A stretch of DNA of 62,102 bases, counting the filler, from Deltaproteobacteria bacterium (GTDB lineage Bacteria > JAUYMQ01), in the NCBI GenBank assembly GCA_030698575.1. It is 10 parts of 10 records of this genome, joined end to end, with 100 filler letters (N's around TTAATTAATTAA, not from the genome) between each part and the next. Parts side by side here need not be neighbours in the genome. Positions count along the whole stretch, not along the records: positions 59,543 to 62,102 come from JAUYMQ010000237.1; 9 more parts are not named here. The stretch is one strand, 5' to 3'. Positions 5,539 through 62,102 of the stretch are shown here, piece by piece. The notes under the pieces were generated by a model. It did no database searches and was not told where the DNA came from. It saw only the letters and a list, made by a program, of their open reading frames with translations. The translations under genes and the position numbers were made by a program. The first letter of the stretch is position 1. Every line of letters begins with the position of its first letter.

Positions 5539-5737
5539 GAAGTCTTCCCGCCGGACTCTCCGGCCCCCTCNNNNNNNNNNNNNNNNNNNNNNNNNNNNNN
5601 NNNNNNNNNNNNNNTTAATTAATTAANNNNNNNNNNNNNNNNNNNNNNNNNNNNNNNNNNNNNNNNNNNNTTCGAGACCCTTCCCAACCTCCTCTGGGTC
5701 TAGCAGATCGAGCTCTGAAAGGACCGCCAGGGCCTGG

Positions 5738-10133: not shown

Positions 10134-10404
10134 GGTGCGGGGATTATAGGGGCGAGGGGGGAACCTCACAATCGGGCCGGAGCGGGGCGGCGCGGCCGGC
10201 GCGTTGACATCCGCGCGCCGGGGTGGCATGGTCGAGCCGGAGAATCCCATCCGGCCGGCCGGAGCAGTGTCTGCGCATGCGATCCATACTGACCCGACCC
10301 CTCANNNNNNNNNNNNNNNNNNNNNNNNNNNNNNNNNNNNNNNNNNNNTTAATTAATTAANNNNNNNNNNNNNNNNNNNNNNNNNNNNNNNNNNNNNNNN
10401 NNNN

Positions 10405-15274: not shown

Positions 15275-15376
15275 ANNNNNNNNNNNNNNNNNNNNNNNNN
15301 NNNNNNNNNNNNNNNNNNNTTAATTAATTAANNNNNNNNNNNNNNNNNNNNNNNNNNNNNNNNNNNNNNNNNNNNA

Positions 15377-25448: not shown

Positions 25449-25548
25449 NNNNNNNNNNNNNNNNNNNNNNNNNNNNNNNNNNNNNNNNNNNNTTAATTAA
25501 TTAANNNNNNNNNNNNNNNNNNNNNNNNNNNNNNNNNNNNNNNNNNNN

Positions 25549-32995: not shown

Positions 32996-33095
32996 NNNNN
33001 NNNNNNNNNNNNNNNNNNNNNNNNNNNNNNNNNNNNNNNTTAATTAATTAANNNNNNNNNNNNNNNNNNNNNNNNNNNNNNNNNNNNNNNNNNNN

Positions 33096-39585: not shown

Positions 39586-40089
39586 NNNNNNNNNNNNNNN
39601 NNNNNNNNNNNNNNNNNNNNNNNNNNNNNTTAATTAATTAANNNNNNNNNNNNNNNNNNNNNNNNNNNNNNNNNNNNNNNNNNNNAGAAATCCCCCATCC
39701 GGGAATCGGCAGAGCCCGGGGAAAACTATTTCCCACTATGGGCAAGCCCCTTCCCCGGCGGCTCCACAACCAGAGGCAGGCTCGCAGCATAGCCATTGTA
39801 TCGAAAGTGACCGCTCCCGGGTAATGGTGTCACCCGAAAGAAGCCCCTCCCCGGCCCTGACGCCACCGGGCGACGGGACCGGACTGCCCTGCCCGGCCTT
39901 GGCAGCCAGGCAGATTTCTTGAACGATTTCAGGCAGTTAAACTCTCCCCGGCGAAATCTTCAAGAGCCCTCCCACGGCGGACCCGAACCCCCCGAAAATA
40001 GTTTGATTTTTCTTCTCTTGCCCCTGCCACGCACCGCGGCCCCGGTGCACTAAGGAGGTAGGACTCCTTCTCCGATAAGGCTGCTAGAC

Positions 40090-44917: not shown

Positions 44918-45142
44918 TTGATCGCGGCGCGAATGTTAACACAGCAGCGGCGGCGCCGGGCCAGGCGCTTTCATCGCCAAGCGCCGTTCTGCTAGTCTCT
45001 CCGGCATCGTCGACCATGAAGACGGCCTGAAAATCGCGGAGGNNNNNNNNNNNNNNNNNNNNNNNNNNNNNNNNNNNNNNNNNNNNTTAATTAATTAANN
45101 NNNNNNNNNNNNNNNNNNNNNNNNNNNNNNNNNNNNNNNNNN

Positions 45143-54877: not shown

Positions 54878-54978
54878 GNNNNNNNNNNNNNNNNNNNNNN
54901 NNNNNNNNNNNNNNNNNNNNNNTTAATTAATTAANNNNNNNNNNNNNNNNNNNNNNNNNNNNNNNNNNNNNNNNNNNN

Positions 54979-59442: not shown

Positions 59443-59542
59443 NNNNNNNNNNNNNNNNNNNNNNNNNNNNNNNNNNNNNNNNNNNNTTAATTAATTAANN
59501 NNNNNNNNNNNNNNNNNNNNNNNNNNNNNNNNNNNNNNNNNN

Positions 59543-59892
59543 GCTCCGATCATGTGCCCCTTGCCGCGGTTCGGGTTGCTGTTCTTCTGGAGCAGGAACG
59601 CAGCCAGGCCCCCGATGGCGCCTCCGACGAGTGGGAAGGCCGACTTGACGATGTCCGGCAGGTCCAACGCGAGCTTGCTCGCCGCGAGCTGAGACAAGCC
59701 AACGCCAGCCAGGCCGATGCCAACGCCGAGCAGGACGTCAGTCGAGTTCACCTCGTAGTTCATGACGCCGTACTCCCCGAGGTCGGGCAGGACGGAGACG
59801 GCGTGCTCCGGCCCTGACTCGGGCGCGTAGCGGGAGCAGCGGAGGCCGCTGGCGGTCTTCTTGAAGGCGAGACACTTCTTGGTGGTGTTCAT
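59543..59892 (-). CDS. Membrane protein with a Cys-pair N-terminus (partial)
   Basis: AAAGGA RBS; MNTTKKCLAFKKTASGLRCSRY...DLGEYG, then two Gly-rich TM segments. Confidence 0.75.
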
Positions 59893-59952
59893 GTGTTTCC
59901 TTTCTTTCTGGTGGGTGCTGCGACCGGGCGGGAGCGCCGACCGGAAGGTTTA

Positions 59953-60144
59953 CTAGGTAGAATCCTTTGGGTGACGAACGTCATCGATCTCGAAGATGAC
60001 GCCGATGCGCTTACAGACACGGATGCACTCGCCCCTGAGACGAGACTTTACGGCGAAGCCGGCCCGTTTCAGACGCTTGGCCTCCCGCTCGCACATGGCG
60101 CGGCAGGAACGTTGAAGCCGATTCTTGAAGGAACGCTTCGTCAA
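59953..60144 (-). CDS. Small basic protein with two CxxxC pairs
   Basis: GGAGG RBS, TTG start; KRSFKNRLQRSCRAMCE...GECIRVCKRIG. Confidence 0.55.
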   Translation of the reverse strand: MTKRSFKNRLQRSCRAMCEREAKRLKRAGFAVKSRLRGECIRVCKRIGVIFEIDDVRHPKDST

Positions 60145-60149
60145 TGGAA

Positions 60150-60305
60150 CTACTTCCTCCAGGCGCGGCGCAGGCACTTGCCGAAGTCGCCCTTCTTGGG
60201 CAGGTGGCCGGCGCGGAGCTTGGACATGCAGGTTCGGGCGATCCTCGCGAACTTCGCCTTGTGCGCGCTGCCGCTCTTCCGGTGACGCTTGATTCGACGG
60301 GCCAT
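60150..60305 (-). CDS. Small, very basic protein
   Basis: AAGGAG RBS; MARRIKRHRKSGSAHKAKFARIARTCMSK...FGKCLRRAWRK (51 aa). Confidence 0.7.
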   Translation of the reverse strand: MARRIKRHRKSGSAHKAKFARIARTCMSKLRAGHLPKKGDFGKCLRRAWRK

Positions 60306-60345
60306 GGGCTTCTCCTTCATCGCCCGCGAGCGGGCAGGGGTTGGA

Positions 60346-60582
60346 CTACTTCTGCTTCCGCAAACAGGTGGACATGCACGGTCGGAACGGGCCGTTGCGC
60401 TTGCACTCCTTGACGCAGTGCTTGAGCTTCGCCTGCTGGCGCTTCTGCGCGGGGGACGAATGCGCCCGCTTGCGGTGGGCCTTCTTCGCCCTCGGCGCCT
60501 GGCCGATGACGCGATGGGCGCCGAGGTCTTCGTACCCTCCGGCATTGTAATTCTCGAAGATGGCTATGCGGTTGCGAGGCAT
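60346..60582 (-). CDS. Small basic Cys-rich protein
   Basis: TGATG overlap with the upstream gene; GGYEDLG, then KKAHRKR...HCVKEC...PCMSTCLRKQK. Confidence 0.7.
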   Translation of the reverse strand: MPRNRIAIFENYNAGGYEDLGAHRVIGQAPRAKKAHRKRAHSSPAQKRQQAKLKHCVKECKRNGPFRPCMSTCLRKQK

Positions 60583-60722
60583 CAGCGACTCCTCGAAGCG
60601 AAGATGAACGCCAGAATCCCGACGACCAAGACCCCGCCGCCGACCAAAGCGATCGTCTGAGGCAGCTCGAAGATGCCCCCAGGCGAGGTCTCGCCATATC
60701 CACGTAGCCGACGGACGATCAT
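60582..60722 (-). CDS. 46-aa single-TM protein with an MIVRR...YG leader
   Basis: Below the ORF track cutoff; hand-translated MIVRRLRGYGETSPGGIFELPQTIALVGGGVLVVGILAFIFASRSR*; ATGA overlap upstream, TGATG overlap downstream. Confidence 0.75.
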   Translation of the reverse strand: MIVRRLRGYGETSPGGIFELPQTIALVGGGVLVVGILAFIFASRSR

Positions 60723-61030
60723 CGGTGGCGCCTTCCGTAGCCAGCCAACCGCTTCGGCCGCTTCACGGCCGCGATGACCCCGCCGAGCACAACGATGCCA
60801 ACCACGCCCGCGATGGCCATGTACTTGACCGCGCCAGCGCTCGACTCCGCTTCCTGCGCACGAGAGGCAGCGGCAGCGGCAGCGGCAGCGGCTTGTGCCT
60901 GAGCAGTCTTCGCCGCACTGCCGCCGAGGATGTTTCCGGCAACATCCATGGACTTCATGATGAGGTCTAGGATGTCCCCGTAGGCGGGGCGATGGCCGAT
61001 GCGGCGGGCTGCGGAGCGCGAGACGATCAT
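60719..61030 (-). CDS. Single-TM protein with an MIVSR...YG leader and an Ala-rich stalk
   Basis: MIVSRSAARRIGHRPAYG-DIL...AAAAAAAA...YMAIAGVVGIVVLGGVIAAV-KRPKRLAGYGRRHR; ATGA overlaps at both ends. Confidence 0.78.
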   Translation of the reverse strand: MIVSRSAARRIGHRPAYGDILDLIMKSMDVAGNILGGSAAKTAQAQAAAAAAAAASRAQEAESSAGAVKYMAIAGVVGIVVLGGVIAAVKRPKRLAGYGRRHR

Positions 61031-61227
61031 GTTTTCACCGCCACGTAGAGGAGCCCGCCGACGACCGCGAGCCCTGCAAGGCCGCCCGCGACGTAGAGCC
61101 CAGTGTTGGATGACTGCTGCGGCATCTGGATCTGCGGCGCGGCCTTGGGGTTCATCATCTCCATGATCGCGGGGATGAACTGAACCCAGCCGTAGCGGCC
61201 ACGAGCGTATGTGCGCCGGACGATCAT
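61027..61227 (-). CDS. Single-TM protein with an MIVRR...YG leader
   Basis: MIVRRTYARGRYG-WVQF...LYVAGGLAGLAVVGGLLYVAVKT; ATG overlaps the TGA of the upstream gene. Confidence 0.78.
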   Translation of the reverse strand: MIVRRTYARGRYGWVQFIPAIMEMMNPKAAPQIQMPQQSSNTGLYVAGGLAGLAVVGGLLYVAVKT

Positions 61228-61760
61228 TCGAGCCACGCTGTCAAAACATGCCCGCGCGGAGGTTCCCACCCCACGAAGGATTCGGGGACGGTCGTGTCAA
61301 GCCCAACGACCTGCTTCGGGTTCCGCTTCGGGAGCGCGGCTACGGCGTAGACGTGAACGAATTCGTCCGTGTTCTCTGGACCCCACGCGCGGAGCCCCAT
61401 GCGGAAGCCGAGCGAGCCGGCCAACGAAGTGACCAGCGCTGCGTGGTCGTCACAGTCTGAGCCGCACGAGCCACGCTGACACATCTCGAGCGCCCTGAAC
61501 GGTGCGATGAAGAGGTCTGCAAGCCGTGGGTCGGCGACGTACCGGAAACCGTTTTTCAGGCCCGGAACCTTGCTGCTGCCGTGCTTGACGGCATTGAAGA
61601 TGGCTTCCAGCTCACCAGCATCGTCGCGGGCACGGAGGTCATTGGTGATGGCCCCGGCCGCCTCGCGGATACGAGGGTGGAGCGTCGACCTTTCGGCCAA
61701 CTCGGCGAGCTTTTTGAGAGCCGCCTTCTGATCACCGACGCTGACTAGCGACAGACGCAA
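61224..61760 (-). CDS. Transglutaminase-like (papain-fold) Cys-His-Asp enzyme, putative protease
   Basis: RYVADP...SDCDDHAALVTSL...LGF...FVHVYA...LDTT...GWE; GGAG RBS before TTG. Confidence 0.8.
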   Translation of the reverse strand: MRLSLVSVGDQKAALKKLAELAERSTLHPRIREAAGAITNDLRARDDAGELEAIFNAVKHGSSKVPGLKNGFRYVADPRLADLFIAPFRALEMCQRGSCGSDCDDHAALVTSLAGSLGFRMGLRAWGPENTDEFVHVYAVAALPKRNPKQVVGLDTTVPESFVGWEPPRGHVLTAWLE

Positions 61761-61821
61761 GCCGACTCCGCAACTTCGGAATCAGCCGGGAACATTGGTC
61801 ACTTCAACGCCGCCTAGAAGA

Positions 61822-61851
61822 AAGCTAGCGGAGTGGGGCAGAGGGTGTCAA
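61822..61851 (-). promoter_or_regulatory. Sigma70-like promoter for the transglutaminase operon
   Basis: TTGACA-N18-TAGCTT, about 60 nt upstream of the TTG start. Confidence 0.5.
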
Positions 61852-61892
61852 GTGCGATCCCTTGGCGGGCCAGAAAACATGGTTACGGGGCG

Positions 61893-62102
61893 TCAGTCGA
61901 ATGGGACTTGGCCCTGCTGGCGCATAGAAGTGTGACCAACGGCAGTGATGATGATGTGGTCAGTGATCTTGAGCCCGAGGATGTGGGCACCGTCCAGAAG
62001 TTGCCGTGTCAACGCAGAATCAAGCGCAGAAGGTTCCAAACTCCCGGAAGGATGGTTGTGAACAAGCGCGATCGATACGCACCCAGCCGCAATCGCGGCC
62101 CC
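61893..62102 (-). CDS. RadC-like JAB domain protein, C-terminal part
   Basis: Not in the ORF track; hand-translated IALVHNHPSGSLEPSALD...LGLKITDHIII. Confidence 0.9.
   Translation of the reverse strand, partial: GAAIAAGCVSIALVHNHPSGSLEPSALDSALTRQLLDGAHILGLKITDHIIITAVGHTSMRQQGQVPFD

Follow-up and report, generated by a model that had tools for sequence, protein, structure and literature searches.

The closest known relative of the enzyme studied here is gp34 of Salisaeta phage SSIP-1 (whose record we take to be JN880423), a 304-aa protein annotated as 'structural protein' without a function. SSIP-1 is described in passages of PMC6356626 and PMC6260650 as a tailless, icosahedral phage of about 100 nm (T=49) with an internal membrane, a circular 44-kb genome and two major capsid protein types, given as 'single jelly roll?'. 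Our enzyme, a predicted transglutaminase-fold protein of 178 aa with a TTG start, is encoded on the minus strand at positions 61224-61760 of a 62,102-nucleotide stretch of DNA from Deltaproteobacteria bacterium (assembly GCA_030698575.1), hereafter called the window, and is followed by genes for three small membrane proteins (s1, s2 and s3) with similar N-terminal leaders ending in Tyr-Gly. We conclude that the contig carrying these genes derives from the late module, which encodes particle building, of bacterial viruses with double-stranded DNA genomes of roughly 58-89 kb that form an uncultured group. The enzyme is one of the core genes of these viruses and a distant homolog of the virion protein gp34.

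By fold, the closest characterised enzyme is LapG, a periplasmic, sequence-specific protease with a single dedicated substrate, a giant adhesin, from which it removes an N-terminal piece by cutting at a di-alanine site. The acidic residues flanking its catalytic Cys bind calcium, which is reminiscent of the D-C-D-D sequence in our enzyme. In contrast to LapG, the 178-aa enzyme has no signal peptide, no LapG Pfam family among the matches listed, another motif and a viral setting. Provided that the enzyme is a protease, it would also resemble the adenain-like proteases of adenoviruses, poxviruses, African swine fever virus (ASFV) and virophages. In these viruses, which have jelly-roll capsids and in some cases internal membranes, short Gly-containing motifs mark the sites at which a cysteine protease packaged in the virion trims many proteins, be they structural, membrane or basic DNA-core proteins. 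However, adenain has another fold and its clan places His before Cys in the catalytic order, whereas the order in the 178-aa enzyme is Cys-His-Asp, so the likeness would be convergence and not kinship; no adenain-like structure was among the 50 matches listed for the enzyme model.

A shared leader on otherwise unrelated proteins is known from T4, where it targets internal proteins to the particle before the head protease gp21 cuts it off. T4 is a tailed phage, however, and gp21 a serine protease with cleavage after Glu, whereas tailed-phage hallmarks were not found here: our enzyme gave no PHROG match, be it to prohead proteases of the HK97, ClpP or T4 gp21 type or to another family, and portal, terminase and HK97 capsid, the setting of a prohead protease, were not found in the complete related genome G005 and four other records. 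PeiW and PeiP of Methanothermobacter phages, which share the fold, are lysis enzymes with cell-wall-binding repeats that act on archaeal walls; they matched our model with a lower score than the putative proteases and have another gene context. Among the titles and abstracts listed from literature searches there was no transglutaminase-like capsid-maturation protease in a phage and no paper linking SSIP-1 with transglutaminase. Those listed from further searches contained no description of the virus group, which looks undescribed.

Fold, active site and relatives of the enzyme

The enzyme carries the motifs SDCDDH, HVY and GLD, and lacks both a signal peptide and a membrane segment. In an alignment of 21 homologs the residues D102, C103, D104, H136, V137, Y138 and D155 are invariant, which makes C103, H136 and D155 the candidates for the catalytic triad as judged by conservation. 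The AlphaFold (AF2) model reached a predicted local distance difference test (pLDDT) of 92 and a predicted template modelling score (pTM) of 0.89. Among the structural matches listed for it, the putative protease 3kd4 scored 13.6 and the putative Cys protease 3isr 10.8, followed by Factor XIII (10.7), TG2 and PNGase (10.1 each), LapG (9.8), and PeiP and PeiW (9.1). The initial annotation had called the enzyme transglutaminase-like; the order of Cys, His and Asp, the Pfam matches of the homologs and these structural matches all agree with this, and the predicted fold can be regarded as secure. The fold does not decide whether the chemistry is hydrolysis, transfer or isopeptidase cleavage.

Homologs of the enzyme form 115 clusters with 39-68% identity (own entry excluded), and 622 proteins in an exhaustive representative library matched at E<=1e-3. 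The Transglut_core family (PF01841) was matched by four of the 21 homologs, the best at 2.2e-7, and is precomputed for two of the 115 clusters. Neither the sequence nor the profile gave a meaningful match against PDB chains, and tblastn against 50,697 GenBank phage records, SSIP-1 included, returned nothing at E 1e-3; the connection to SSIP-1 described below emerged only from structure and profile comparison.

The importance of the putative active site is suggested by inteins. Eight long representatives of the enzyme (304-527 aa; P0118, P0120, P0122, P0123, P0142, P0145, P0147 and P0158) align in two pieces, and in all eight the break falls at residues 102-103 of the 178-aa enzyme. All five forms scanned for Intein_splicing, namely four of these eight and a 514-aa form from a further locus (L110:6-1550), matched at E<=0.01, three of them exceeding the Pfam cut-off. 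The intein of P0118 separates ..GGD from CDDH.., the candidate catalytic Cys being the residue right after it. Inteins typically reside in indispensable active sites, and their position exactly at this Cys therefore argues that the virus needs a working Cys103. Some of the enzyme inteins also contain LAGLIDADG remnants.

The top structural match of the enzyme in BFVD was a 304-aa protein (E 3.3e-9, template modelling (TM) score 0.73, root-mean-square deviation 2.1). We infer that this entry is gp34 of SSIP-1, because it has the same length and because gp34 was also matched by profile and by blastp: hhalign of the enzyme-family profile against gp34 gave a probability of 98.1% (E 1.1e-13), and blastp of gp34 against the G005 enzyme gave 29.9% identity over 134 aa. 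The gp34 sequence contains ..ADCDG.., ..DHVYVVY.. and ..LDPT.., and ends in a hydrophobic anchor. The resemblance extends to the neighbourhood, since the homologous Cys-His-Asp core is followed in SSIP-1 too by small tail-anchored proteins (ORFs 35, 36 and 39) and by a structural protein with an MIV start; the latter, gp37, begins MIVQRS and lies 193 bases past the previous gene with no gene overlap. SSIP-1 is tailless, contains an internal membrane and has a genome (44 kb) unusually large for its type. The two enzymes differ in that gp34 has an N-terminal extension and a C-terminal membrane anchor, whereas the 178-aa enzyme is a bare soluble core.

Beyond the enzyme the two genomes have little in common. 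Only three of the 33 SSIP-1 proteins tested had a blastp match in G005, the other links being ORF54 (transglycosylase-like) and a weak match of ORF13. The profiles of six other families, including the capsid-like, M4 and ~500-aa families described below, reached at best 10.8% by hhalign against the 33 SSIP-1 proteins. SSIP-1 also differs in having a Walker-A structural protein, gp40, for which no counterpart was found here, a search for one in G005 giving no match. SSIP-1, which is unclassified, is the only cultured point of contact of the virus group.

A more distant clade of enzymes (L008-L022; 28-35% identity, IMG/VR contigs of 30-138 kb) carries an N-terminal membrane segment. Many proteins around these enzymes start ML....[YL]G, and several paralogs there have short variable leaders ahead of a conserved VGVAPGTTT N-terminus, possibly amounting to a further leader code.

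N-terminal leaders of the neighbouring proteins

The three genes directly after the enzyme in the window were found, as the initial annotation had described them, on the minus strand and joined through ATGA overlaps (enzyme/s1, s1/s2 and s2/s3), each encoding a protein with one hydrophobic segment near the C-terminus. The first, s1 (66 aa, 61027-61227), starts with MIVRRTYARGRYGW, its leader being MIVRRTYARGRYG (MIVRR..RYG), and has a C-terminal anchor with LYVAGG. The second, s2 (103 aa, 60719-61030), starts with MIVSRSAARRIGHRPAYGD; its leader MIVSRSAARRIGHRPAYG (MIVSR..AYG) is followed by an Ala-rich middle, a C-terminal anchor and the tail LAGYGRRHR. The third, s3 (46 aa, 60582-60722), starts MIVRRLRGYGE with the leader MIVRRLRGYG, and its G+C content at third codon positions (GC3) is 0.74; it was indeed missing from the track of open reading frames (ORFs) and emerges only when the minimum ORF length is lowered to 30 aa. 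Proteins of the s1-s3 type share the leader only. A homolog search for s2 among 5.8 billion proteins returned only s2 itself.

We then surveyed the N-termini encoded downstream of the enzyme in about 30 related loci, where the leader motif proposed in the initial annotation was found to recur. Tail-anchored proteins directly after the enzyme have leaders of the form M-I-[VILF], a few residues and [YF]-G (form A), for example MIVRDLRGFG, MIFNSYRGFG, MILRKSPDGMSYG, MIVHDYGRFHGFG and MIIKHTYGVYG. A second form (form B) begins M-A, is rich in R or K and ends in [YF]-G-[DS]. It was seen on a membrane protein that we call M4 (MARHRRRRRYGDP, MARRRRRRFGG and MAKRRRYGD) and on a family of helical proteins of ~100 aa (MARRRRKRYGDP and MARRKRKRFGDP). 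A third form (form C) is that of the family of the basic protein b1, with the N-terminus ..IAI.EGY.., which in some members is followed by an embedded MARRRRRRYGSP unit. Three b1-family genes (in L071, L068 and L081) contain the complete MARRRRRRYGSP unit after an ..IAILEGYT N-terminus, which would fit a leader that moves as a module or marks an internal start.

The motif is concentrated at N-termini. Within residues 3-24 a [YF]G was present in 119 of 603 virus-locus proteins; the same proteins had one within residues 25-46 in 53 of 589 cases, and the other contigs of the window encoded 73 proteins of which only three had one within residues 3-24. Among ORFs with an ATG start and the N-terminus MI[VILFM], a [YF]G was present in the first 28 residues in 26 of 50 cases on the enzyme strand, as opposed to 3/38 on the opposite strand. 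The basic version [RKH]{2}[YF]G occurred 37 times, whereas 200 within-protein shuffles gave 10.6 +/- 3.2 (maximum 20); 28 of the 37 start in the first 25 residues, and the next residue is D or S in 21. The motif is carried by at least four unrelated families, among them soluble helical proteins (family 6). In the M4 family the anchor pattern was recognised in 19 of 30 members, 17 of which have [YF]x0-1G upstream of it, and 9 of the other 11 show [YF]x0-1G as judged by reading their N-termini. Several enzymes have short N-terminal extensions of their own that carry [YF]G (MSNFGYDNP, MPFGFVSG and MRSSYGD).

Besides the N-terminal leader, unrelated tail-anchored proteins share a C-terminal anchor that opens with [LM]-Y-[VI]-[GA]-[LAG]-G. 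This anchor was seen in s1 (61027-61227), in G005 genes 70 and 95 (L030:14723-15166 and L031:11127-12689), and at L034:1947-2228 and L054:7248-7481.

A complex prediction of the enzyme with residues 1-45 of s2 scored 0.01; it was made with no controls and weighs neither way.

Gene order, capsid-like proteins and the complete relative

Relatives of the enzyme were found on 24 IMG/VR contigs (21-138 kb), 80 metagenome contigs and one contig of a Chloroflexi metagenome-assembled genome. In the five closest IMG/VR loci the gene order is a 465-563-aa protein, the enzyme, small proteins, an M4 homolog, a 225-255-aa protein, three mutually paralogous proteins of 291-362 aa and a further ~300-aa protein. 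Polybasic Cys proteins recur in this module after the leader-bearing small proteins and before the membrane protein with the Arg-rich N-terminus. The gene for the ~500-aa protein lies upstream of the enzyme in 30-37 loci. The capsid-like 225-255-aa family comprises 184 clusters, whose longest contigs bunch at 54-89 kb; its gene has the top GC3 (0.89-0.97) in four of the five loci, while in L001 the M4 homolog is higher.

The model of a 233-aa member of this family (pLDDT 79.5) is a single jelly roll, and Foldseek of this model against the PDB gave nothing under E 0.01. The models of the three paralogs resemble DUF2961; the ESM Atlas model of a 340-aa paralog aligns to DUF2961/GH172 with TM scores of 0.53 (237 residues) and 0.51 (245 residues). 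The nearest Pfam-bearing clusters for the 233-aa and 340-aa proteins are PM2 P2 and PRD1 P3 (scores 0.76-0.78), which we treat as leads only. Profiles of the two families had no match among PDB sequences and Pfam, and neither did Pfam and PHROGs for the ~500-aa, 233-aa and four ~300-aa proteins. DUF2961, PNGase F and PHM are, in the sections of PMC8812541 on which we draw, cellular proteins with the double-jelly-roll fold; the same sections place SPV1 at the base of the single-jelly-roll capsid branch and mention jelly-roll viruses that have no packaging ATPase. A jelly-roll, tailless architecture is therefore probable for the virus group.

The ~500-aa protein (L005:7939-9516 and homologs) consists of a small N-terminal globular part followed by stretches that are coiled, rich in Pro and Gln, or acidic. 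Scaffolding, a tape-measure-like function or membrane remodelling are conceivable roles. A role as packaging ATPase or portal was rejected, as it has no Walker A and is mostly coiled, Pro-rich sequence.

CheckV rates the genome G005, of 75,450 bases and with a terminal repeat of 123 bases, as 100% complete. Its genes include those for an integrase, a family-A DNA polymerase fused to uracil-DNA glycosylase, a UvrD-type helicase, a primase, thymidylate synthase and kinase, methyltransferases and an intein-carrying GP88-like protein. The last of these, gene 11 (L028:8195-10513), is split by an intein with a LAGLIDADG domain and represents a second intein host. A PHROGs scan of 86 of the 102 called proteins, with 25 of 33 families listed, found no terminase, portal, HK97-type capsid or tail tube. 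Names that relate to the particle were limited to 'virion structural protein', 'tail fiber protein', 'lytic tail fiber protein', 'tail protein' (7e-5) and 'endolysin' (6.8e-5). Six-frame Pfam searches with TerL_ATPase, Phage_capsid and Phage_portal were negative for all five records (G005 and the four others) and positive for the control genomes, and Terminase_6N gave one sub-threshold P-loop match (11.6 bits) within the UvrD-like helicase ORF of G005. The six Walker-A proteins of this genome are a thymidylate kinase, the UvrD-like helicase, an SMC-like protein, a Sak4-like protein, a 222-aa signal-peptide-like protein and a 66-aa ORF. Gene 94 (L031:9839-11116) matched PHROG 1645 'virion structural protein' at 4.6e-43 and T4-like cyanophage proteins at about 30% identity, probably reflecting a shared receptor-binding or fibre domain. 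Members with known phylum in the ESM Atlas rows are mostly labelled Uroviricota. Single hydrophobic anchors are present in G005 genes 70, 73, 85, 88 and 95 and in many other proteins, and s1-s3 and M4 are likewise membrane proteins; such proteins would be expected to sit in the virion membrane. A structural module with genes for many small virion membrane proteins is also a trait of the PRD1-adenovirus lineage of jelly-roll viruses with an internal membrane.

As for the window itself, it should be underlined that it is a chain of separate contigs joined by N44-TTAATTAATTAA-N44 linkers at nine junctions (5571-5670, 10305-10404, 15276-15375, 25449-25548, 32996-33095, 39586-39685, 45043-45142, 54879-54978 and 59443-59542). 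Gene adjacency across a linker is thus without meaning, and the enzyme contig is not physically linked to the ribosomal-protein operon placed before it. The enzyme and the leader proteins occupy the last piece (59543-62102), which is an entire contig of 2,560 bases (JAUYMQ010000237.1) with all genes on the minus strand and coding-type GC3 values (0.69-0.92) for all ORFs. Directly upstream of the enzyme lies a fragment of a RadC-like JAB-domain gene (61893-62102, minus strand; C-terminal 69 codons, cut by the contig end), which matched Pfam RadC at 3.8e-18; the other proteins among the eight of this contig had no Pfam or PHROGs match over threshold. By tblastn RadC had no match in any of 112 related loci, the gene upstream of the enzyme there being that of the ~500-aa protein; a RadC-like gene in this place is seen only in the present contig.

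Downstream of s3, and joined to it by a TGATG overlap, b1 (60346-60582, minus strand; 78 aa, pI 10.8) has the conserved N-terminus NRIAIFENY..GGYEDLG followed by a polybasic, Cys-containing half. It matched L001 by tblastn (1.2e-5) and its family has 18 members in the related loci. Next, b2 (60150-60305, minus strand; 51 aa, pI 12.0, 42% K/R/H) starts with MARRIKRHRKSGS, has two Cys and is preceded by GAAGGAGAA upstream of its ATG. A possible third basic Cys protein of 63 aa, b3 (59953-60144, minus strand; GC3 0.72), would begin at a TTG after GGAGGAAG; its start is uncertain, a GTG at 60177 being the alternative. Taken together, b1-b3 have pI values of 10.6-12.0, 28-42% K, R or H, and cysteines. 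Such tiny, extremely basic Cys proteins (pI up to 12) between the enzyme and M4 were observed in the window (59953-60582) and in L054, L074, L110 and L041, those of L054, L074 and L110 resembling b2; they look protamine-like and are possibly DNA-condensing core proteins or zinc ribbons. The contig ends within M4 (59543-59892, minus strand; first 116 codons), which has a basic Cys-containing N-terminus, DLGEYG, and then NSTDVLLG and hydrophobic segments. By tblastn M4 matched the gene immediately before the jelly-roll protein in L001 (6.7e-9), L003, L004, L002 and L005, and its family has 30 members in the related loci.

Proposed role, competing explanations and significance

Taken together, the fold, the catalytic triad, the viral syntenic context, the homology to gp34 and the recurrence of the leaders are conclusions of which we are highly confident. 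The enzyme would, in the explanation that we prefer, be a virion-associated cysteine protease that recognises M-I-[VIL]-x-[RDNSH]...[YF]-G leaders on tail-anchored membrane proteins and M-A-[RK]n-[YF]-G-[DS] leaders on other membrane proteins and helical proteins, and cuts after the leader Gly during assembly. The aromatic residue of the leader might then occupy the S2 pocket, as in papain-like enzymes, while the acidic D-C-D-D rim around the candidate catalytic Cys would face the basic leader. We favour a protease because (putative) proteases head the structural relatives and sequence-specific cleavage is proven for LapG, because the enzyme is a core, intein-targeted gene of a structural module with a homolog annotated as a virion protein, and because the leaders co-occur with the enzyme in two divergent settings, the virus group and, in part, SSIP-1. 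Papain-like active sites, moreover, go well with an aromatic residue at P2 and a small one at P1, as the invariant acidic rim would with basic leaders. For the virus group, icosahedral, tailless particles with a membrane inside are probable. The protease activity, the cut site, the presence of the enzyme in the particle of this virus and the tailless, membrane-containing architecture are what we infer from these observations. For the whole, a virion-associated leader protease in the particle-building module of a tailless membrane phage group with its mechanism included, we put the probability somewhat short of even.

Several observations weigh against this explanation. Cleavage after [YF]G is a prediction, and the 178-aa enzyme itself had no Pfam, PHROG or PDB-sequence match over threshold. 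Genes in the related loci were called with our own GC3-based heuristic, their start codons often being uncertain, and the leader counts include homologous proteins that were not collapsed, so that p-values are inflated. The motif is present in at least half of the members in only five of 29 families with >=3 members, and in one of these five (family 8) it lies inside a membrane segment. In the M4 family the residues after [YF]G are conserved as well (..DPVISMPSFG and ..SxVxIPGLG), so the motif may belong to a structural element instead of a leader to be discarded; N-terminal arms rich in Arg, moreover, can bind DNA uncut. The initial annotation had also noted YG/LG motifs at apparent domain boundaries. 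The instances it named are all present (LAGYG at the s2 C-terminus, GGYEDLG in b1 and DLGEYG in the cut M4 ORF), whereas the wider idea fails for the ~500-aa protein upstream, in which 10 of 25 members have no [YF]G and no alignment column is conserved. The capsid-fold scores of the modelled proteins are middling or leads only, and a search for a packaging ATPase with FtsK_SpoIIIE gave only sub-threshold P-loop matches in helicase-sized ORFs. The assignment to a tailless double-jelly-roll virus made in the initial annotation is accordingly borne out in part: the viral locus, the structural synteny, the adjoining jelly-roll proteins, a complete relative that lacks tailed-phage hallmarks and a nearest named relative of the enzyme that is a structural protein of a tailless, membrane-containing phage all agree with it, whereas the FtsK/A32-type ATPase was not found and the double jelly roll is a weak structural lead.

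The enzyme might instead be a cell-wall peptidase for virion entry or lysis, with the small proteins being virion membrane or holin-like proteins and the leaders unrelated to the enzyme. Lytic enzymes are part of the particle in phages with a membrane, PRD1 for instance, the homolog in SSIP-1 combines the annotation of a structural protein with a membrane anchor at its C-terminus, and an enzyme gene with overlapping genes for small membrane proteins resembles a lysis cassette. We nevertheless regard this explanation as unlikely, since at least 30 loci have the gene amid the structural module, with the gene of the ~500-aa protein on one side and the capsid-like genes on the other, and since G005 has a separate, membrane-anchored lytic-transglycosylase-like protein elsewhere (PHROG endolysin 6.8e-5; similar to SSIP-1 ORF54). 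Putative proteases also outscore isopeptidases among the structural matches listed, and leaders shared by non-membrane proteins would be left unexplained. The same triad serves transfer reactions in the superfamily, and a true transglutaminase or other acyl-transfer enzyme that stabilises a large particle through cross-linking or modification of its capsid, membrane or core proteins would also fit a homolog annotated as virion-associated. However, the leaders have no conserved Gln, the acyl donor of transglutaminases, the bare 178-aa core is devoid of the extra domains of the eukaryotic enzymes, and the matched bacterial members of proven activity are mostly hydrolases, which together make this role improbable.

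A further explanation concerns the leaders rather than the enzyme, whose target would lie elsewhere: the 'MI' could stem from ATGA coupling, the basic residues from the positive-inside rule or DNA-binding arms, and the [YF]G from compositional accident. In an ATGA overlap the second codon must indeed start with A, Gly and Arg are frequent in these genomes (GC 0.58-0.72), the counts are non-independent as they include homologous proteins, and support at the family level is limited (5/29). Yet the opposite-strand control (3/38 against 26/50), the shuffles (10.6 +/- 3.2 against 37 observed) and the N-terminal concentration (28/37) all speak against mere by-products, as do the motif on the soluble helical proteins of family 6, the short [YF]G extensions of several enzymes, and SSIP-1 gp37, which starts MIV without an overlap, 193 bases past the previous gene; leaders of this accidental kind thus have little probability. 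Small peptides with a shared leader beside a Cys enzyme are also reminiscent of bacteriocin- or RiPP-like systems (ribosomally synthesised and post-translationally modified peptides), where a dedicated cysteine peptidase removes the leaders of small exported peptides, and double-glycine leaders are cut by papain-like C39 peptidase domains. This non-viral possibility, which the initial annotation had kept, is set aside as very improbable, given that no transporter or modification enzyme was found, that the module lies inside viral genomes beside capsid-like genes in every long locus examined, and that the SSIP-1 homolog is annotated as a virion protein.

Extending the preferred explanation of a leader-cutting virion protease, one may picture an abundant, undescribed lineage of tailless internal-membrane phages of about 58-89 kb that has independently invented adenovirus-/ASFV-style maturation. 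Its capsid would combine one single-jelly-roll and three paralogous double-jelly-roll-like proteins, and a virion-packaged protease would strip the leaders from membrane proteins, protamine-like core proteins and itself, the leaders serving as assembly or DNA-tethering signals until cut. This broader picture is tentative, and on the whole rather doubtful. Among jelly-roll viruses, proteolytic maturation has to our knowledge so far been linked with eukaryotic members (adenoviruses, giant viruses, virophages and Polintons). The protease of these eukaryotic viruses is traced, in the portion of PMC6260650 concerned, to a eukaryotic transposable element that recombined with a PRD1-like phage. A bacterial counterpart on another fold would, if true, mean that large membrane-containing capsids have reached the same solution twice, and it would come with a simple cleavage code. 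Whatever the mechanism, the contig gives access to a virus group that is widespread, with 115 clusters of the enzyme and 184 of the capsid-like protein, and provides a first functional lead for gp34 of SSIP-1.

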